A program made the translations under genes and the position numbers. The notes under the pieces are model-generated. The model saw only the letters and a list, made by a program, of their open reading frames with translations, searched no databases and had not been told where the DNA came from. This document shows positions 7,464-36,595 of a stretch of 47,560 nt of DNA, piece after piece. Source of the stretch: Betaproteobacteria bacterium (GTDB taxonomy: Bacteria > Pseudomonadota > Gammaproteobacteria > Burkholderiales > SG8-39); assembly GCA_022340705.1 (NCBI GenBank), contig JAJDNJ010000169.1, positions 1-47,560 of the forward strand, in the 5' to 3' direction. How positions within the stretch are numbered: the first letter of the stretch is position 1; every line of letters begins with the position of its first letter.

Positions 7464-8405
7464 ATGAATGCGTACACCGACCGCATGCCAGAGGTCGTCA
7501 TTTCCCAATTGACGCAAGATGGCGTGATTCGCGTCTCCGGCGCCGACGCGCGTGCGTTTTTGCACGGCCAGCTCACCAACGACATCGAGCACCTTGCCCC
7601 GGACTATGTCCGACGCGCCGGCTGGTGCACGGCGAAAGGTCGCCTGCTCGCGACAATGTTGGTTCTGAGGGACAGCGACGATTTTCTGTTGCTGCTTGCG
7701 AGCGACATCGTGTCTGCAGTGATCAAGCGGCTGCGGATGTTCGTCCTGCGATCGAAAGTAACGATTGACGATGAAAGCGCGCGCTGGGCACATTACGGGC
7801 TGATCGGTCGCGGTGCAGACCAGGTGCTTGCAGCAAACAATACTGCGGTTCCCGGGATGGGCGTCCATTCGCTGATACGTGCGGACGATGCCTGGGTGAT
7901 GCGCCTCGAGGGCGGGCGTCTGCGCCTGCTGCTCGACAGGGATTCGAATGCGCTGCGCGTAGATCGCCTCGCGCTGCCGTTGGTCGACGCCTCGCGCTGG
8001 ACGTTGGAAGACATCCGCGCGGGCGTGCCGCAGGTGGTCGCTGCGACGCAGGATTTGTTCGTGCCGCAAATGGTGAACTTCGAGATCATCGCCGGCCTCG
8101 ACTTCAAGAAAGGCTGCTATCCCGGTCAGGAAGTCGTCGCGCGCGCCCAGTACCGGGGTCAGGTCAAGCGCCACCTGTGTCGCGCGCGCATTGCAGGCGA
8201 CAGCGCACTCGCCGCGGGTCAGGCGCTGGTCTGCGACGATCAGCCCGGCGAGGCCTGCGGAACGATCGTCGCCACGGCGCCGGCCGACGGGGGCAGCGAG
8301 CTGCTTGCCGTGGTACCGGATGCGGTGCGCGAAGCGCAGGTCACGGTACGCGCGACGCCTGACGGTGCGCCGCTCGAATGGCTTCCCCTGCCCGACGCAG
8401 CGTGA
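7464..8405 (+). CDS. ygfZ: Folate-binding Fe-S/tRNA-modification protein YgfZ
   Basis: GADARAFLHGQLTND, signature FKKGCYPGQEVVAR. Confidence 0.95.
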   Translation: MNAYTDRMPEVVISQLTQDGVIRVSGADARAFLHGQLTNDIEHLAPDYVRRAGWCTAKGRLLATMLVLRDSDDFLLLLASDIVSAVIKRLRMFVLRSKVTIDDESARWAHYGLIGRGADQVLAANNTAVPGMGVHSLIRADDAWVMRLEGGRLRLLLDRDSNALRVDRLALPLVDASRWTLEDIRAGVPQVVAATQDLFVPQMVNFEIIAGLDFKKGCYPGQEVVARAQYRGQVKRHLCRARIAGDSALAAGQALVCDDQPGEACGTIVATAPADGGSELLAVVPDAVREAQVTVRATPDGAPLEWLPLPDAA

Positions 8406-8692
8406 CGCGCGGCTGCCTGTACAGCTACTACCGGGCGGATCCTGCGCATCGGGAGGCCCTGCGCGGCGTGGTCGAAGCACTCTTTCGGAGCGTCTCGCAA
8501 ATCTTCGGCGTCGAGGGACGCTGGATGCAGCGCAAGGACGATCCGGACACGTTCATGGAAATCTACGCCGGCGCCGCCGACGTCGATGCACTCGCTCAGT
8601 TCGTCCGTGAGCAGTGCGAACGATCGGGATTTCGACGCCTGCTCGCCGATTCGGGTGTGCGTCACGACGAACTGTTCGTCGAAGCGGGCTGA
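8402..8692 (+). CDS. DUF4936-like small protein
   Basis: LYSYYR...TFMEIY...RHDELF pattern; GTGA overlap with ygfZ; matches the ygfZ-DUF4936-NRDE order I recall from Betaproteobacteria. Confidence 0.7.
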   Translation: MTRGCLYSYYRADPAHREALRGVVEALFRSVSQIFGVEGRWMQRKDDPDTFMEIYAGAADVDALAQFVREQCERSGFRRLLADSGVRHDELFVEAG

Positions 8693-28639: not shown

Positions 28640-29464
28640 ATGAACCCGCGCCGCACCGTCTTCTTCGTCTCTGACGGCACCGGAATCACGGCGGAAATGC
28701 TGGGGCACAGCCTGTTGACCCAGTTCGAGGGCGTGCAGTTCGACCAGATTACGCTCCCGTTCGTCGACAGCCTGGCGCGCGCCGAGGAATGCCGCGAGCG
28801 CATCGCGGCCGAAGCCGTGCGCGTCGGTGCAGCGCCGATCGTGTTTTCGACGCTTGTCGACCGTGCCTACCGCGAGGTGGTGTGGCGCGCCCCGGCGTTG
28901 TGCTTCGACTTCTTCGAAACCTTCATTGCGCCGCTCGAGGAGGGGCTGGGAATACGCTCGACGCACCATGTCGGGCGCTCGCACAGCGCGCTCGACATGC
29001 AGGAATACCAGCGCCGTATCGAAGCGGTGAACTATTCGATGGCGCATGACGATGGTGCATCGAACGTCGACCTCGACCAGGCCGAGGTCATCTTGGTCGG
29101 CGTATCGCGCTCCGGCAAGACCCCCACCTGCCTGTACCTGGCCCTCCAGTTCGGCGTCAGCGCTGCGAATTATCCGCTGACCCCCGAGGATTTCGATCGC
29201 GACCTATTTCCACGCGCGCTGCGCCGCTACCGGACAAAGCTGTTCGGTCTGTCGATCGCGCCCGATCGCCTGAGCGAGATTCGGCAGGCGCGTCGGCCGA
29301 ACAGCCGGTATGCATCACTTGAGAATTGCCGCTACGAAGTCGACGCGGCGGAGCGCATGATGCGTGACGAATCGATCCGCTGGCTCGACTCGACCAAGCG
29401 ATCGATCGAGGAAATCGCCACCACGATTCTGCGCGAGATGCGGATCGACCGGCATGTCTACTAA
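28640..29464 (+). CDS. ppsR: PEP synthase regulatory kinase/pyrophosphorylase
   Basis: FFVSDGTGITAE, HDDG, GVSRSGKTPT, AANYPL, SIEEIA; divergent from ppsA. Confidence 0.96.
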   Translation: MNPRRTVFFVSDGTGITAEMLGHSLLTQFEGVQFDQITLPFVDSLARAEECRERIAAEAVRVGAAPIVFSTLVDRAYREVVWRAPALCFDFFETFIAPLEEGLGIRSTHHVGRSHSALDMQEYQRRIEAVNYSMAHDDGASNVDLDQAEVILVGVSRSGKTPTCLYLALQFGVSAANYPLTPEDFDRDLFPRALRRYRTKLFGLSIAPDRLSEIRQARRPNSRYASLENCRYEVDAAERMMRDESIRWLDSTKRSIEEIATTILREMRIDRHVY

Positions 29465-30249
29465 CGTCCCTGCGGCACGCGCCGCTGGCGTGCGGCCTCG
29501 TACAAGCAGATCGACGCCGCGACCGCCACATTGAGCGACTCGGTCGCGCCGCCAATGGGAATCCACGCCCGCAAGGTCGCCGCACGCGCAGTGGCCTCCC
29601 CCACCCCGCGCGCCTCTCCCCCGAACGCCCAGGCGTGGCGGCCACGCAGGTCGATTTCATGCAGCGGCGTGCCGTCGCGCGGCACGGTGCAGATGCGCTC
29701 TCCGGCGAATGCTGCAAAGCGCTGGGCGAGCGCATCGGTTTCGCGCAGCCGCAGAGAAAAATGCGCGCCCATCGCGGCGCGCAGGACCTTTGGTGACCAG
29801 GGATCCGCGCAACCTGCGCCGAGCACGACCTCGGGCACTTCGAATGCAGCCGCACTGCGCAGAATCGCGCCCAGATTGCCGGGGTCTTGCACCCCGTCCA
29901 GAAAAATACGGGGCTCGGCGCTGTCGGCTTCCAGCGGCGGGGACGGGATCTCGATTTCTGCGGCAATGCCCTGCGGCGTCTCGGTACCGGCCAGGCTCTT
30001 GAACACTGCTGTCGCGAGCACCACGGGCGCGACCCCGGCGCGCGCGACGAGCTCGCCGACCTCGCGGGCTTCGCTGGCCTGGGCACTGACGATCAGGGCG
30101 ATTGGCGCGCCCTGCGCCTGCAAATACGCACCGACCAAGCGTGTGCCTTCGATCCAGGCGCGCCCCGCGCGGCGCCGCGTCTGGCGATCGGCGATCAGTC
30201 TGCGCCAGCGGCGCACGCGCGGATTGTCCCTCGAGCGCAGGATGGTCAT
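29461..30249 (-). CDS. TrmH/SpoU family RNA methyltransferase
   Basis: SRDNP, LDGVQDPGNLGAILRSA, PKVLRAAMGA, GGEARGV, ESLNVAVA. Confidence 0.93.
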   Translation of the reverse strand: MTILRSRDNPRVRRWRRLIADRQTRRRAGRAWIEGTRLVGAYLQAQGAPIALIVSAQASEAREVGELVARAGVAPVVLATAVFKSLAGTETPQGIAAEIEIPSPPLEADSAEPRIFLDGVQDPGNLGAILRSAAAFEVPEVVLGAGCADPWSPKVLRAAMGAHFSLRLRETDALAQRFAAFAGERICTVPRDGTPLHEIDLRGRHAWAFGGEARGVGEATARAATLRAWIPIGGATESLNVAVAASICLYEAARQRRVPQGR

Positions 30250-30351
30250 TGTGAAGCGAAATCCGGTGCCCTCGTCCGGACCAAGCCCGGTTCGATCACC
30301 TGCGCGACGAACGCCGCGCAACTGCCGCGTCGATCTGCGCCACGCTCGGCC

Positions 30352-31512
30352 TCAGGCAGGCGCATGTTCGAGCATGCTGAGCACGGCATCGCAGGCTTTC
30401 TGCGCATTGTTCTGGCGCAGCCTCTCGTGGAGCTCGTAAAAATGCGCGAGCTGCTGCTCCCGCGCCGCAGCGTCGCGCAGAATGCCGATGAGCGCCGCCG
30501 CCAGATCCCAGGGCGTCACTTTCTGCTGGACAAATTCCGGCACTACGGGCGCCGCGGCGAGCAGGTTCGGGAGACCGACCGCGATCCGCGCAGAGCGCGG
30601 CCGCCCAAACCACCAGTCTAATCGGCTCGTGCGGTGCGCAATGACCATCGGGGTCTTGAACAGCGCCGCTTCGAGCGAGCTCATGCCGCTCGATACCAGT
30701 GCGACCTCGGCCGCGGCGAGCGCCTCGTGAGCGTGGCCGAACAGCACGGTCAGCGGAAAATCGCCGTCCGCATGCAGACGCACCGTCGTCTCGATCAGCT
30801 CGCGATGTTCGCGCGAGGAGGCAGGCATGACGAAGTGTGCCTCCCCGATCTCGTTATGCAAGCGGCGCGCGGCCTTCACGAAAATTTCCGCCAGCGTCGC
30901 GAACCCGGCACCGCGCTCCCCCGGCAACAAGGCGACAATGCGTCTGCCATGTGGCAGGCGCAGCTGTGTGCGCGCAGCAGCCTTGTCGATCTTGAGTGGC
31001 AGGCTGTCGGCCAGGGGATGGCCGACGAACGACGCGCAAACGCCGGCGTGTTCGTAAATTGCCGTCTCGAACGGAAACAGGGTAAGTACGCGGTCAACGC
31101 AATGCGCAATGCGCTTCACCTGCCAGCGTCGCCAGGACCAGACTTCCGGCCCCGCATACTGCAAGGTCGGGATTCCGGCCGCCTTCAGCCGCCGCCCGAT
31201 GGGCAAGCTGAATTCGGGCGAACCGATGCCGACGAATAATGCCGGAGGCTCAGCGAGCCACCGCTGGATCAGGCGTGCACGGATGCGCGCCAGCTCGCGA
31301 CGTTTCGAGCCGCCCCGCGTGCCGCCACGTTCCGCGAGCTTTTCGAGTGCGATGTCGGCGACCGCGCCCTGCGCCTGCATGCGCCGGCCTGCGATCCCGG
31401 CCGCCACCAGCTCGGGGCACCGCTCGTGCAGGGCTGCGAGTAGCTCGGCCCCGAGGGCATCGCCAGACGCGTCACCAACCGCGACACCGACGCGGATCCC
31501 ACCGCCCGCCAC
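30352..31512 (-). CDS. lpxB: Lipid-A-disaccharide synthase homolog, strongly degenerate motifs
   Basis: GDASGD, P.VWSWR, LFPFE, FVGHPLAD, LLPG.R, LPNLLA..PVVPEFVQ; position after lpxA. Several invariant residues are changed (see findings). Confidence 0.85.
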   Translation of the reverse strand: MAGGGIRVGVAVGDASGDALGAELLAALHERCPELVAAGIAGRRMQAQGAVADIALEKLAERGGTRGGSKRRELARIRARLIQRWLAEPPALFVGIGSPEFSLPIGRRLKAAGIPTLQYAGPEVWSWRRWQVKRIAHCVDRVLTLFPFETAIYEHAGVCASFVGHPLADSLPLKIDKAAARTQLRLPHGRRIVALLPGERGAGFATLAEIFVKAARRLHNEIGEAHFVMPASSREHRELIETTVRLHADGDFPLTVLFGHAHEALAAAEVALVSSGMSSLEAALFKTPMVIAHRTSRLDWWFGRPRSARIAVGLPNLLAAAPVVPEFVQQKVTPWDLAAALIGILRDAAAREQQLAHFYELHERLRQNNAQKACDAVLSMLEHAPA

Positions 31513-31520
31513 AATCCGAC

Positions 31521-32291
31521 CTATCGCACGATGCCGCGTTTAGCGCGCCCGAGAAAGTCGGCCATCACGCGAACCTCGTCGTGCGCTTGCGCCTGCGTCT
31601 CCAGCTCGCGTAGCGCCTCTTCGAAACTGAGTCCCGAGCGATAAAGCGTACGGTAGGCGCGCTTGATCGTCTGAATCGACTCCGACGAAAAGCCGCGCCG
31701 GCGCAAGCCTTCGGCATTGATCCCGAATGGGCGCGGGGGCGAGCCCGAGATCGTCACGTAAGGCGGCACATCGTTGGCAAGAGCGGATTGCATCCCGAGA
31801 AAGCTGTGCGCCCCAACGTGAACGAACTGATGCACCAGCACCCCTCCTCCTAGATACGCCCAATCGTCGAGCACCACGTGGCCAGCGAGCTGGACGAGAT
31901 TGGCAAGTACGATGTGGCTGCCAATCTGGCAATCATGCGCGATGTGCACGTACGCCATGATCCAGTTGTCGTCGCCCAATCGGGTGACCCCGGCATCCTG
32001 CACCGTGCCGGTATTGATGGTGACGTACTCGCGAATGGTGTTTCCATCGCCGATCTCAAGCGCAGTCTCCTCGCCGCCGTACTTCTTGTCCTGTGGCGGA
32101 CCTCCGATGCACGCGTGGTGATGGATGTTGTTGCCACGACCGATTCGCGTGCGGCCGTCGATGACTGCATGCGCACCGACCCGGGTGCCCTCTCCGATCT
32201 CAACATTCGGCCCGACGATGCTGAACGGACCGATCGAAACGTCGTACGCGATCCTGGCGTCCGGATGGACGATCGCGCGCGAATCGATCAT
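31521..32291 (-). CDS. lpxA: UDP-N-acetylglucosamine O-acyltransferase
   Basis: Hexapeptide repeats, PQDKKY, IREYVTIN.GT, MAYVHIAHDC, HQF, DVPPY, N.EGLRRRG. Confidence 0.97.
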   Translation of the reverse strand: MIDSRAIVHPDARIAYDVSIGPFSIVGPNVEIGEGTRVGAHAVIDGRTRIGRGNNIHHHACIGGPPQDKKYGGEETALEIGDGNTIREYVTINTGTVQDAGVTRLGDDNWIMAYVHIAHDCQIGSHIVLANLVQLAGHVVLDDWAYLGGGVLVHQFVHVGAHSFLGMQSALANDVPPYVTISGSPPRPFGINAEGLRRRGFSSESIQTIKRAYRTLYRSGLSFEEALRELETQAQAHDEVRVMADFLGRAKRGIVR

Positions 32292-32293
32292 CG

Positions 32294-32749
32294 TCAGGGA
32301 CGCGCCGCAACGGGCCGCAGTGCGCAAAGCAGAACTGCCTCAGTCACCAGCGCCCCTCCGACTCGCGCCTTGCACTCGTACTTTCCGATCCCGCGTCGGC
32401 TCGCAACCAGCTCCACGTCGAGCTCAAGCTGATCACCCGGCAAAACGGGCTTCTTGAAGCGCGCATTGTCGATTCCGGCAAAGTAGTACATCTCCTCCTT
32501 GTCCGGCATCCGTTGCATGGTCCGGAAGCCGAGAATCGCAGCAGCCTGTGCCATCGCCTCGAGAATGAGAACGCCCGGCATGATGGGCCAGTTCGGAAAA
32601 TGCCCGGCAAAATGCGGTTCGTTTGCCGTGACATTCTTGATTGCCACGAGACGCTTTCCCGGTTCGCAGGAGAGAACCCGATCGATCAGCAGGAACGGAA
32701 AGCGGTGCGGCAAGTAGCGCAGCACCTCTTGAATGTCCATCTCAGTCAC
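32294..32749 (-). CDS. fabZ: 3-hydroxyacyl-ACP dehydratase
   Basis: [41 protein letters not shown]. Confidence 0.98.
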
Positions 32750-33779
32750 TGTTTGATTCCTTTCCGAGAAGCCCTTTCTCGAGTCTGCGCACCCGTTCGA
32801 TCAGCGATGACAGATGGCGCAGGGCCGCTGCGTTCCGAAGCCAGGACCCATGGTCATCGAAGGGAAACAGCCCGGTATACGTGCCGGCGCGCAGCGAGCG
32901 CGTGATCGCGGTTCCGGGCGAAATACGCGTACCGTCCGCGATCTCGATATGGCCCCGGATCATAGCGGCGCCGCCGATCTCGCAGTTTCTGCCAATCACC
33001 GCACTGCCCGCAACGCCAGTGCACGCCGCGATCGCCGTGTTCGCTCCGATGCGCACGTTGTGTGCAATGTGGATCTGATCGTCGAGTTTCACTCCGTCCC
33101 CGATCACCGTGTCGTCGATCGTGCCCCGATCGACGGTCGTGTTGGCACCTATCTCGACGTCGTCGCCGAGCACCACGCGGCCAAGTTGAGGGATCGAGTT
33201 CCAGCGATCCCCATCACGCGCATAGCCGAAGCCGTCGGCGCCGATCACGACGCCGGCATGCAAGATACTGCGTGCGCCGATGACGCATCCGTCATAGACG
33301 ACTGCAGTCGGGTACAGGCGGCAGTCGTCACCCAGCCGCACGCCCGCGCCCACGAACGATCCCGCGCCGATCCAGGCGCGCTCGCCAATGCGCGCCTCGG
33401 CATCAACAACGGCGCCAGCCTCGATCCGGGCGCTCGGCGCAACTGCGGCACGCGGATGCACCCGTGCCGCAGGATCGATTCCTGCCTCGCAGACGGGAAG
33501 CGGATTGAGCAGCCGCGCCAGACGAGAGAAATACAGATAGGGCTCATCGGTCACGATGCGCGGCAGCACGGTTGACGCCTCGAACTCTGGAGATATGACG
33601 ACCGCGCCTGCGCGCGTGCGCGCGAGTTCTCCGAGATAGCGCCGATCGGCGACGAATACGACGTGCTCGGCACCCGCACGCGCGAGCGTGCTCACCTGGA
33701 CAATCTTGCAATCCGGATCCCCGACGATTCGGCCGCCGAGTTGCGCGGCAATCTCGGACAAGCTCAACGGCCCACGCAT
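32742..33779 (-). CDS. lpxD: UDP-3-O-acylglucosamine N-acyltransferase
   Basis: [34 protein letters not shown]. Confidence 0.96.
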
Positions 33780-33790
33780 GTTCGCGCGAG

Positions 33791-34297
33791 CTAGTTTTCG
33801 TCCAGCGCCTTGATCACCTTGTCGGTGATATCGATGCGCGGATTGGCATACACCGCATCCTGTATCACGATGTCGAGCTTTTCCTCGCTCGCGATCTGGC
33901 GGATAACGCGGTTCGCTTTCTCGACCACCGCAGCGAGTTCCTCGTTGCGCCGTTGATTGAGGTCTTCGCGAAATTCGCGCTGCTTGCGCTGAAACTCCCG
34001 GCTCATCTCACCGAATTCCCGTTCCTTCGTGCGGCGCTGGCTGTCCGACATGGTCACGGCGGTGCGTTCCATCTCGTCCTGCGTCCTTTTCAGCTGCTCG
34101 GCCATGCGGCCGAGCTCCTGATCGCGTTTCTGGAACTCAGCTTCGATCTTCTTCTGCGCACGCTGCGCCGGCGTCGAATCGCGCAGAATGCGCTCGGTGT
34201 TCACGAAGCCGATCTTGCCCTGCGCATGGGCAACCCAGGGCAGGAGTAGCGCGATCCCGAATACAACACAGCGCAGCATGGAGCGAGCAATCATCAC
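33791..34297 (-). CDS. skp: Periplasmic chaperone Skp/OmpH
   Basis: Signal peptide, KIGFVN..RIL, coiled coil, DITDKVIK. Confidence 0.95.
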   Translation of the reverse strand: MMIARSMLRCVVFGIALLLPWVAHAQGKIGFVNTERILRDSTPAQRAQKKIEAEFQKRDQELGRMAEQLKRTQDEMERTAVTMSDSQRRTKEREFGEMSREFQRKQREFREDLNQRRNEELAAVVEKANRVIRQIASEEKLDIVIQDAVYANPRIDITDKVIKALDEN

Positions 34298-34312: not shown

Positions 34313-36595
34313 TCAAAAACCGGTTCCAAATTGAAATTGTAACCGCTGAATCTGATCTCCCGGCTTGTTGTTCAGCGGCTGGGCTGCGGAAAGCTTCAAG
34401 GGACCGAACGGCGAATTCCACGCGATCGAGATGCCCGTCGAGTATCGAAGATCGGAAAAGCTCAGATCCTGACCTTGTCCCCAGACCTGACCGGCATCGA
34501 CAAAGGCGCCGAGGCGCAGCGACTTGTCGTTCTCCGCGCCGGGCATTGGGAACAGAACCTCGACGTTGCCCACGATCTTACGGTTCCCACCGATCGGATC
34601 ACCATTGATGTCCTGGGGTCCCAGCGTGAACGGCTTGTAGCCGCGCACCGAGCCTGGTCCACCCGCGTATAGATTCTTGAAGAACGGGAGCGGCAAGCCG
34701 CCGTAGCCTTCGCCGTAGCCCACCTCACCGTTCAGGAAAAGGGTGAAGGTACGCGACAGCGGATAGAGCCACTGCTGCTGAAAGTTCAGCTTGTAGTACT
34801 TCAGGTCTCCGGCGCCGACTTCGACGCTGGCGCGCGACAGCATGCCCTCGCGCGGAATGATCAGGCTGTCGCGCGTATCCCGGGCCCAGCCCGCGGTGCC
34901 GAAGCCATAGGTGTAATGGTCGCCGAACGTCTGGATGAATTGCTGGTAGGAAGGCGAGCTGTTTCCGTAGACCGTAGTGTTGACGTCCTCCGCCCCGATC
35001 CCGAAGCTAACCGACGAAACTTCGGACAGCGGATATCCGAACTTGAACCCGCCGCCCCAGGTATCGGTCTTGTACGGCGAAACCGAGGCGTTGGTCGCAT
35101 CGATCTTGCGCTTGTAGACATCGAAGCCCGCGCTCACGCCGTCGACCGTAAAGTAGGGGTTTAGGTACGAGAGCGAGTAGACCTGATTGATCTTGCCCGA
35201 GCTCACGTTCACCGACAGAAATTTTCCGCTGCCAAACACGTTCTGCTGGCTGACCGACCCGGAAATCACGAAGCCTTCCGTGCTCGAAATCCCTGCGCCG
35301 AGCATGATCGAGCCAGTCTGCTTCTCCTTGACCGTGAAATTGACGTCGACCTGGTCTTGCGTGCCTTCGACCGGCTTCGTTTCTACCGTAACCTCGCTGA
35401 AGTACTGGGTCCGGTCGATGCGACGCCGCGAGAGCTGGATCTTGGAGGTATCGTAGAACGCGCCTTCGAGCTGACGCATTTCGCGCCGGACCACCTCGTC
35501 GCGCGTTTTCGTGTTGCCCGAGATGTTGATGCGCCGCACGTACACGCGGCGACCCGGGTCGACGAGGATATTGAACGCCACCGAACGCTTTTCCTTGTCG
35601 ACGTTCGGAACCGCGTTGGCGTTTGCGAACGCGTAGCCTTCGTTTCCCAGACGATCGGTGATCGCCTTGGTCGATTGATTGAGACGTGCTCGCGAAAACA
35701 CATCGCCCGGCTTGACGCGAATCAGCCGCTCGAGCTCTTCTTTCGGCACCACGAAGGTCCCGGAGAGTTCGACACTGCTCACGGTGTATTTATCACCCTC
35801 GCGGACGTTGATCGTGATGTAGATGTCCTTCTTGTCTGGGGTAATCGACACCTGCGTCGATTCGATTGCAAAGTCGAGGTAGCCGCGATTCAGGTAGTAC
35901 GAGCGCAGCGTCTCCAGGTCGCCCGCCAGTCGCTGACGCGAGTACTGGTCGTGCTTTGTGTACCAGGTCAGCCAGCCCGGCGTGCGCAGCACGAACAGAT
36001 CGACGAGCGTTTTCTCGGGGAATGCATGGGCGCCGACGATGTTGATCGAACGGATCTTAGCGATGTCCCCCTCGGTGACCGCAAAGTTAATCGCGACCCG
36101 GTTGCGCTCGAGCGGCGTGACCGTGGTCTCCACCTGTGCTCCGTATCGACCCTTGGCCAGGTATTGACGCTTCAGTTCCTGCTCGGCGGTTTCCAGCAGC
36201 GCACGGTCGAAAATTCGCCCATCGGCCAGACCTTGTTCGCGCAGGACGCGGCGCAGCGTCTCTTCATCGAACTCTTTGACGCCCGAGAAGGTGATCTGCG
36301 CGATCGCAGGGCGCTCCTCTACATAGACGATCAGGACGTCCCCCTGCACTTCGAGCCTGACGTCCTTGAAGAATCCCGTTGCGTACAGCGCGCGAATCGC
36401 CTCCTGCGCCTTCTCGGTCGTGAGCCGCTCGCCCACCTTTACCGGGAGGTAGCTGAACACGGTTCCCGCCTCGGTCCGTTGCAGACCTTCTACCCGGATG
36501 TCTTTTACGACGAAGGGCGCGAACGACTGGCCGAACGCGCCGATGCAAAGGGCAAGCAATGCGCAGCCAACAATCGCAACGACACGAGCCCGCAT
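34313..36595 (-). CDS. bamA: Outer membrane protein assembly factor BamA
   Basis: DIRVEGLQR, POTRA repeats, GNTKTRDEVVRRE, SVRGY, SPFGPL, C-terminal QFQFGTGF. Confidence 0.98.
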   Translation of the reverse strand: MRARVVAIVGCALLALCIGAFGQSFAPFVVKDIRVEGLQRTEAGTVFSYLPVKVGERLTTEKAQEAIRALYATGFFKDVRLEVQGDVLIVYVEERPAIAQITFSGVKEFDEETLRRVLREQGLADGRIFDRALLETAEQELKRQYLAKGRYGAQVETTVTPLERNRVAINFAVTEGDIAKIRSINIVGAHAFPEKTLVDLFVLRTPGWLTWYTKHDQYSRQRLAGDLETLRSYYLNRGYLDFAIESTQVSITPDKKDIYITINVREGDKYTVSSVELSGTFVVPKEELERLIRVKPGDVFSRARLNQSTKAITDRLGNEGYAFANANAVPNVDKEKRSVAFNILVDPGRRVYVRRINISGNTKTRDEVVRREMRQLEGAFYDTSKIQLSRRRIDRTQYFSEVTVETKPVEGTQDQVDVNFTVKEKQTGSIMLGAGISSTEGFVISGSVSQQNVFGSGKFLSVNVSSGKINQVYSLSYLNPYFTVDGVSAGFDVYKRKIDATNASVSPYKTDTWGGGFKFGYPLSEVSSVSFGIGAEDVNTTVYGNSSPSYQQFIQTFGDHYTYGFGTAGWARDTRDSLIIPREGMLSRASVEVGAGDLKYYKLNFQQQWLYPLSRTFTLFLNGEVGYGEGYGGLPLPFFKNLYAGGPGSVRGYKPFTLGPQDINGDPIGGNRKIVGNVEVLFPMPGAENDKSLRLGAFVDAGQVWGQGQDLSFSDLRYSTGISIAWNSPFGPLKLSAAQPLNNKPGDQIQRLQFQFGTGF

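Follow-up and report, generated by a model that had tools for sequence, protein, structure and literature searches.

The stretch of DNA analyzed here, referred to as the window, spans the 47,560 nucleotides of contig JAJDNJ010000169.1 from the Betaproteobacteria bacterium assembly GCA_022340705.1 and includes a locus with the gene order bamA, skp, lpxD, fabZ, lpxA, lpxB, trmH-like, ppsR, and ppsA. In lipid A synthesis, the LpxB step is regarded as essential, single-copy, and invariant, and the enzyme as an antibiotic target. The lpxB homolog of this locus, the subject of this study, is an intact gene whose product is without the predicted catalytic base and the hydrophobic membrane patch of LpxB, and the same genome carries a second, canonical lpxB. 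We call the in-cluster window copy lpxB_in (protein LpxB_in) and the extra copies, found on contig C185, lpxB_x (LpxB_x) and lpxA_x; G000 is the genome that holds the window, G001 to G004 are the other four genomes of the same genus, and L-numbers denote extracted loci.

The in-cluster lpxB gene and its residue losses

A first-pass annotation, made from the sequence alone, had placed an intact open reading frame (ORF) of 386 codons in the lpxB slot, and profile searches matched exactly that frame (Table 1) to Pfam PF02684 (245.5 bits, cut-off 22.6) and to the NCBIfam equivalog TIGR00215 (280.7 bits, cut-off 190.25), the latter match covering positions 11–381 of 382. Against the E. coli LpxB chains 5w8s and 5w8n, residues 8–380 aligned to residues 9–380 (E 7.6e-75). 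The AlphaFold2 model, for which the alignment had 62 rows, gave a confident LpxB fold, with a predicted local distance difference test score (pLDDT) of 88.6 and a predicted template modeling score (pTM) of 0.86, the low-confidence spots being residues 62–66 and 306–308. Its top three Foldseek matches were the E. coli LpxB structures 5w8n, 5w8x, and 5w8s (E 4.5e-30 to 8.2e-30, TM 0.70–0.74), and the model has the GT-B fold of two Rossmann domains found in solved LpxB. The full-length match, this fold, and the operon position after lpxA are features that LpxB_in shares with E. coli LpxB (PDB 5W8S, 5W8N, and 5W8X). Foldseek ranks 4–6 were chains of the Tetrahymena respiratory complex I or supercomplex (8b6f_A0, 8gym_T1, and 7tgh_T1, E 1e-18 to 1.7e-16); a literature search for a link between Tetrahymena complex I and LpxB returned nothing relevant, and these chains may be GT-B-like accessory subunits.

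The study of Bohl et al. (2018, PMC5785501) gives the LpxB active site as E15, S17, D98 (the predicted base), P198, G199, S200, R201, T277, and E281, where S200 binds the α-phosphate of uridine diphosphate (UDP), T277 binds its β-phosphate, and E281 contacts the ribose. It also describes N316 as a structural residue, V125, W126, and W128 as the acyl groove, and V66, V68, L69, L72, L75, and L76 as the hydrophobic membrane/lipid patch of the E. coli enzyme; when all six patch residues were changed to Ser, activity fell below detection and complementation was lost.

Unlike E. coli LpxB, LpxB_in carries the changes E15 to D14, D98 to G97, S200 to E199, and T277 to M277, and its patch reads T, G, G, R, L, and A, with one of the six positions hydrophobic and five replaced within a Gly/Arg-rich segment (Table 1). 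S17 (as S16), P198, G199, R201 (as R200), E281, N316, and the three groove residues are kept, so that of the UDP and ribose contacts R201 and E281 survive and S200 and T277 are altered. In the same alignment, all 86 canonical relatives have nine of nine active-site residues, D98 being Asp in each, and on average 5.07 of the six patch positions are hydrophobic in them; F298 varies even in this set. Judged from this alignment, the residue losses of LpxB_in are far from chance, and we infer from them a loss of activity.

The first-pass annotation had read the protein as a pseudo-enzyme that had lost its catalytic Asp and its membrane-binding helix. The alignment bore this out for both elements, and the six motifs quoted in its support are all present, at residues 12, 59, 95, 118, 195, and 274. 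One of them, QYAGPEVWSWR, had been listed as a departure from the typical form, which stands only in part: the motif does differ, but its initial Ser-to-Gly change is shared with the canonical protein of G001, and the groove residues within it are kept.

Table 1 Coordinates and supporting matches of the genes and altered codons.
Feature	Position	Strand	Basis and remarks
lpxB_in	30352..31512	-	intact ORF, 386 codons, GTG start; native LpxB homolog with eroded catalytic and membrane-binding residues
Gly97 codon, at the position of the E. coli base D98	31222..31224	-	alignment
Gly/Arg-rich codons 61-76, ERGGTRGGSKRRELAR, in place of the hydrophobic patch	31285..31332	-	alignment
Codons 199-200, Glu-Arg: S200 to an acidic residue, R201 retained	30913..30918	-	alignment
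Codon 277, Met, at the position of T277	30682..30684	-	alignment
lpxA_in	31521..32291	-	intact; NF003657 365.5 bits, TIGR01852 334.2 bits; stop 8 nt upstream of the lpxB_in start
fabZ	32294..32749	-	ORF; 77-79% identical to the syntenic gene in G001-G003
lpxD	32742..33779	-	intact; NF002060 402.2 bits, TIGR01853 340.4 bits
skp	33791-34297	-	ORF; synteny, 75-86% identity in G001-G003
bamA	34313-36595	-	ORF; synteny, 81-83% identity in G001-G003
SpoU/TrmH-type RNA methyltransferase gene	29461..30252	-	directly downstream of lpxB_in; weak RlmB/TrmH family matches; synteny
lpxA_x	L044 11999-12772 (G000:C185)		precedes lpxB_x; equivalog match 317.6 bits
lpxB_x	G000:C185:12772-13920		TIGR00215 340.6 bits; same length as lpxB_in

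The neighboring genes listed as fabZ, skp, and bamA are presumably these genes, the names coming from synteny and general knowledge of the families rather than from a hidden Markov model scan.

A second lpxA-lpxB pair and the native copy

Profile matches confirmed that the lpxA and lpxD genes of the window are intact, as the first-pass annotation had stated when it reasoned that either a second lpxB lay elsewhere or lipid A synthesis was unusual in this organism. A search of G000 found the second gene, lpxB_x, on contig C185. LpxB_x belongs to the same family as LpxB_in, has the same length, and is likewise preceded by lpxA, but its active site is complete, with nine residues of nine that do not vary over the 48 rows of its alignment, and five of the six patch positions are hydrophobic; moreover, it lies outside the bamA-lpxD-fabZ cluster and groups with gammaproteobacterial-type sequences. 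The two proteins of G000 are ~35% identical. As lpxC, lpxH, lpxK, and waaA each have one match in G000, the lipid A pathway is, on sequence evidence, predicted to be complete, with a canonical enzyme for the disaccharide step, and an unusual pathway need not be invoked. This step is most likely carried out by the C185 enzyme.

The in-cluster copy is present in all five genomes of the genus. The extra type, sought by protein search with the C185 LpxB (E ≤ 1e-130), turned up in 4 of the 317 family genomes (tallies that include the three unpublished genomes G127, G160, and G134); all four belong to this genus, and the 312 genomes of the family's other 33 genera gave none. No extra-type lpxB was found in G004, a genome that is 79% complete. 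A TIGR00215 scan of the family returned two to three matches in 18 genomes outside the genus, none of them of the LpxB_x type by protein search. Genomes with multiple lpxB genes are known elsewhere, as in the lpxB1/lpxB2 of Leptospira and the Legionella paralogs. A partial third LpxB type, ~33% identical to both G000 copies, lies on the 1353-bp contig C212 of G019 (locus L042); this genome belongs to another genus and is 73% complete, and its third-type LpxB could be contamination or another paralog.

The gene order around the in-cluster copy in G001, G002, G003, and G004 matches that of the window. An LG+G4 quick-search tree with 88 LpxB rows placed the in-cluster sequences of the genus, together with their relatives from the database, in a 37-row clade (support 100) that sits inside the canonical LpxBs of Burkholderiales, and the extra copies formed a separate 13-row clade, also with support 100, among sequences labeled in their source as Gammaproteobacteria, Chromatiales, Thiocapsa, and others. 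Because of this synteny, the clade placement, and the low identity between the two copies, the window lpxB, which holds the lpxD-fabZ-lpxA-lpxB position and is an ortholog by the tree, is the resident syntenic gene and the C185 pair is the newcomer. This reverses one suggestion of the first-pass annotation, in which the window gene was a decaying duplicate. The nearest outside relative of the extra copies is 56% identical to them; among the 80 best loci listed by a pattern-limited genome scan, 78 have titles that we take to be gammaproteobacterial, one is a betaproteobacterial metagenome-assembled genome at 78% identity, and one is titled 'uncultured proteobacterium'.

Several further observations concern the extra pair. 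The GC content at third codon positions (GC3) is 0.84–0.92 in the pair, 0.75–0.85 in lpxB_in, and 0.68–0.85 in the native cluster genes. Among genus members, the NG86 dS of the pair (L044 11852–13920, with the same genes in L035, L038, and L040) is about half that of the native cluster. These contrasts could reflect codon bias or a different history, and the lower dS was not adopted as a sign of recent transfer, given the GC3 values and an extra-copy tree that matches the neighbor-gene tree. The two LpxA proteins score above the equivalog cut-offs (365.5 and 317.6 bits), and their genes are strongly constrained (ω 0.051 for lpxA_in and 0.084 for lpxA_x), and G000 seems to keep two UDP-N-acetylglucosamine acyltransferases, possibly with differing acyl preferences. 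A small globin-like gene (L044 11449–11853, minus strand), which matches the globin part of flavohemoproteins weakly (32.5 bits), stands head-to-head with lpxA_x and is conserved beside the extra lpxA in G002 and G003 (L038 and L040). A heterodimer prediction for LpxB_in and LpxB_x scored 0.00, which gives no verdict and counts as evidence neither way.

It could be argued that the odd residues are assembly errors, or that two lpxB copies from two organisms were binned together, and G000 is indeed a bin of 300 contigs, among which the window contig has a GC content of 0.649 against a mean of 0.676 (standard deviation 0.016). We consider such an artifact extremely improbable. Contigs from four sequencing runs of four studies carry lpxB_in, each with at most four differences and no indels, which also disposes of the assembly errors that the first-pass annotation had allowed for; at least 76% of the sampled words of lpxB_in were held by 20 runs from 17 studies, and an independent metagenome contig (L045) is 99% identical to the gene. 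Both lpxB copies occur in four separate genomes of the genus, the neighbor-gene tree and the extra-copy tree share their branching order, and the bin is 97.9% complete with an estimated contamination of 0.96%. Synteny conserved in the four other genomes of the genus likewise argues against mis-binning of the window contig.

Erosion and constraint across the clade

The 120 best database relatives of LpxB_in comprised a canonical set and ~33 proteins with damaged motifs. Before counting, we dropped P0001 (near-identical to the window protein), P0015, P0026, and P0028 (identical to G001, G002, and G003, respectively), P0073 (truncated), and P0059 (long branch). Next to the 86 canonical proteins, all of which also keep R201, the damaged sequences fell into three groups. 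An intermediate group of five, which includes G001, keeps six to nine of the nine active-site residues, D98 in all five members and R201 in four, and has two or three hydrophobic patch positions. Sub-clade A, with 14 members including the window protein, keeps two to seven active-site residues (mean 4.8), with Gly at position 98 in 11 members, Glu in two, and Asp in one, R201 in four, and a patch mean of 1.36 of 6. Sub-clade B, also with 14 members and holding G002 and G003, keeps three to six (mean 4.1), with Gly at position 98 in all 14, R201 in 11, and the same patch mean. Altogether, ~28 related lineages are eroded like lpxB_in, with two to seven of the nine active-site residues kept.

Loss of the patch is common to all three non-canonical groups, whereas the catalytic losses differ among them, which suggests that the patch went before the catalytic residues. 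Of the 135 sites that are at least 90% conserved in the canonical proteins, 77 are kept in the eroded set, 3 have switched, and 55 have relaxed; sites of this last kind are concentrated in the motifs already known and in the patch, where column entropy is 2.13 against 0.78 in the canonical relatives.

A tree of four neighboring proteins (1477 columns, rooted on G019) gave the topology (G000,(G001,(G002,G003))) with support 100/98, and the extra-copy clade has the same branching order. Because the still-canonical G001 falls between eroded lineages on the neighbor-gene tree, the erosion would have occurred in parallel. The LpxB_in tree, a quick tree, joins sub-clades A and B with an SH-aLRT support of 97, but an approximately unbiased (AU) test of a constraint uniting G001's group with sub-clade B did not reject this species-like topology (Δ log likelihood 13.3, p-AU 0.135). 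Parsimony at position 98 tied between one and two origins by our own count. On balance, parallel erosion of the catalytic residues in two sub-lineages is favored by these comparisons.

The same alignments bear on whether LpxB_in is still an enzyme that uses another base or a changed donor or acceptor, for example by pairing with LpxA_in products of another acyl length, so that the two lpxA-lpxB pairs would give two lipid A species. This would agree with the survival of S17, P198, G199, R201, E281, N316, and the groove residues V125, W126, and W128 in the window protein, with the confidently predicted fold, and with the strong conservation of both LpxA copies, which suggests that two acyltransferase specificities are in use. 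We nevertheless judge it improbable. D98 has become Gly with no conserved acidic replacement nearby; position 101, which is Glu or Asp in sub-clade A, is lost in motifs of sub-clade B such as GIGAPAL and DVGASAF. In addition, the acidic side chain now at position 200 would be expected to repel the α-phosphate of UDP, T277 is lost, and so is the patch, without which the E. coli enzyme does not complement (PMC5785501). R201 and S17 are also lost in sister lineages, so clade-wide selection does not need them.

To quantify constraint, ω was estimated by maximum likelihood (GY+F3X4) on the four good genomes, a restriction that follows from the metagenome scan for DNA of close relatives, in which only one close locus (L045, 99%) was found. 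The ω of lpxB_in was 0.137 overall, with 0.169 for residues 1–165, 0.090 for residues 166–300, and 0.132 for residues 301–383. The other values were 0.034 for ppsA, 0.040 for fabZ, 0.044 for skp, 0.048 for bamA, 0.079 for lpxD, 0.080 for lpxB_x, and 0.106 for trmH, besides those given above for the two lpxA genes. With the three eroded genomes only, lpxB_in gave 0.146; over the two sets of genomes, the other genes gave 0.034–0.107. LpxB_in is 52–58% identical to its orthologs in the genus, against 68–89% for eight neighboring genes, and its NG86 dN is 0.25–0.39, against 0.05–0.24 for the other genes. In peptide stretches that are conserved, DKAAARTQLRLPHG among them, the third codon positions vary, and the constraint therefore acts on the protein and not on the DNA.

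The 28 eroded sequences share 73 invariant columns out of 386 over a tree length of 5.0–5.6 substitutions per site, where by our own arithmetic a uniform rate would leave ~3; the γ shape parameter α is 0.97, and forcing a uniform rate costs 311 log-likelihood units. In the window population, five of the seven variant sites seen in four runs are synonymous, with no indels, against a chance expectation of 26% (binomial P 0.016, or 0.054 when only transitions are counted), and the L045 contig adds one further synonymous difference. These values are far from neutral and do not support the decay that the first-pass annotation had entertained; lpxB_in is not a dead pseudogene.

Constraint of this kind might still be found in a redundant relic in slow decay, held back by the cost of misfolding or toxicity and by polarity on downstream trmH and rnhB, without any new role; we regard this as rather unlikely. 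Such a relic would account for the wide drift of catalytic positions (R, H, L, Q, D, or A at 201; T, M, I, P, A, E, or V at 277), for lpxB_in having the highest ω among the ten genes compared, and for an N-terminal domain at 0.169 against 0.046 in the extra copy. It would also fit the eroded clade having, apart from D98G, no newly conserved residues at known functional sites. Yet the ORF is intact in all four good genomes and in ~33 database lineages, across dS > 1, and the invariant columns, the strong rate heterogeneity within the eroded clade, and the mostly synonymous variants within the population all speak against slow decay. The only broken copy is that of G004, and we rejected it as a case of pseudogenization: breaks also affect ppsA and bamA within the 16-kb stretch that holds it in this incomplete genome, and the database has intact, near-identical proteins of its sequence type (P0018 and P0019). 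The alignments of ppsA, bamA, and lpxB_in in this stretch (L041, G004:C3:147000–163000) each run through several frames, which looks like assembly indel errors.

The fate of a neighboring gene points the same way. In G001, rnhB lies between lpxB and trmH (L036, about 7880–8457); it is absent at the corresponding window position (30253–30351), and a similar-sized gap (~600 bp) is found at the rnhB position in G002, G003, and G004. The only RNase HII match of G000 is at G000:C95:21979–22506. As rnhB was cleanly removed from the operon, deletion is possible there, yet lpxB_in was kept.

Possible role of the in-cluster protein

Taken with the second pair, these data lead us to think it probable that LpxB_in is non-catalytic, or nearly so, and has been retained for some non-enzymatic use after its replacement by the acquired pair. 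In this scenario, the genus ancestor would have gained the divergent lpxA-lpxB pair now on C185, with its complete active site and patch, and this pair would have taken over the disaccharide step. The native LpxB would then have lost its hydrophobic membrane/lipid-capture patch, after which the catalytic and UDP-phosphate-binding residues, freed from constraint, would have eroded, probably in parallel in two sub-lineages. The native protein would still be translated and kept folded by purifying selection, and because it is kept folded in this way, it probably serves a non-enzymatic purpose.

What that purpose might be is suggested by the parts that remain. From its conserved core, together with the acyl groove, E281, and N316, LpxB_in may be expected to bind a precursor of lipid A or a partner protein, and the basic loop, rich in Gly and Arg, that stands in place of the patch is compatible with either. 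Tentatively, and as a rather doubtful proposal, a sediment and marsh clade of Burkholderiales may keep a soluble pseudoenzyme of glycosyltransferase family 19 (GT19) that, catalytically dead and without its patch, recognizes lipid A precursors by way of the surviving acyl groove and the Glu that contacts ribose, and serves as a sensor, buffer, or scaffold of the Raetz pathway, while the foreign pair does the chemistry. If LpxB_in were such a sensor or scaffold, the parallel Gly98 and acidic residue 200 would be an adaptive locking of the empty nucleotide pocket and not drift. Of the two options offered by the first-pass annotation, a repurposed soluble GT19 protein is the better one, although the division of labor with the C185 enzyme, like any new role of LpxB_in, is something that we infer from sequence.

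Several points weigh against retention for a non-enzymatic use after replacement. The ω of lpxB_in, at 0.14, exceeds the values for trmH, LpxD, and LpxB_x by a factor of only 1.3–1.8, and it comes from DNA of four genomes only, with dS near saturation (NG86 dS 0.8–1.3). Purifying selection can come from the cost of misfolding or from downstream polarity, so a new role is not proven by it. Because R201, E281, S17, P198, G199, and the acyl groove survive, a residual or altered activity of LpxB_in is conceivable. The database proteins are biased to intact genes, and with searched lengths of 212–676 amino acids, broken copies could be missed. No RNA run is among the 24 runs listed for lpxB_in, which says nothing on expression. 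As to the origin of the pair, LpxB_x is only slightly closer to gammaproteobacterial loci (median 42.9% identity, 292 bits) than to betaproteobacterial ones (41.3%, 254 bits), LpxA_x is equidistant, and with so small an advantage we did not name a donor.

By sequence, predicted fold, and synteny, LpxB_in is a GT19 protein that is without two defining functional features of the family, the base and the patch. It is homologous to an active enzyme and has lost residues of catalysis, as a pseudoenzyme is understood to have done, and purifying selection has continued after the loss, as estimated from four genomes with dS near saturation. With its patch replaced, the natural protein resembles the engineered soluble E. 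coli LpxB6S/7S, in which, according to PMC5785501, the same six patch positions are polar and the whole active site is kept; unlike these designs, LpxB_in is also without the base and two phosphate binders, and its changes are evolved and clade-wide. A full-text search for LpxB together with 'pseudoenzyme' returned no paper, most subscription journals being outside its range, and our literature search found no report of an LpxB paralog with lost catalytic residues. If LpxB_in does have a non-catalytic role, it would be the first pseudoenzyme described in GT19, as far as the full-text search reached.

The locus would offer a natural case in which a gene of an essential pathway was displaced and its remnant kept: a conserved operon lpxB functionally replaced, as it seems, by an acquired pair, with the old gene persisting as a constrained protein that has neither base nor patch. 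The clade also supplies a natural series of LpxBs at different stages of erosion, which may separate residues needed for folding from those needed for catalysis. Finally, the eroded copy still passes the equivalog cut-off, and profile annotation would name the wrong gene as the lipid-A-disaccharide synthase of these genomes.

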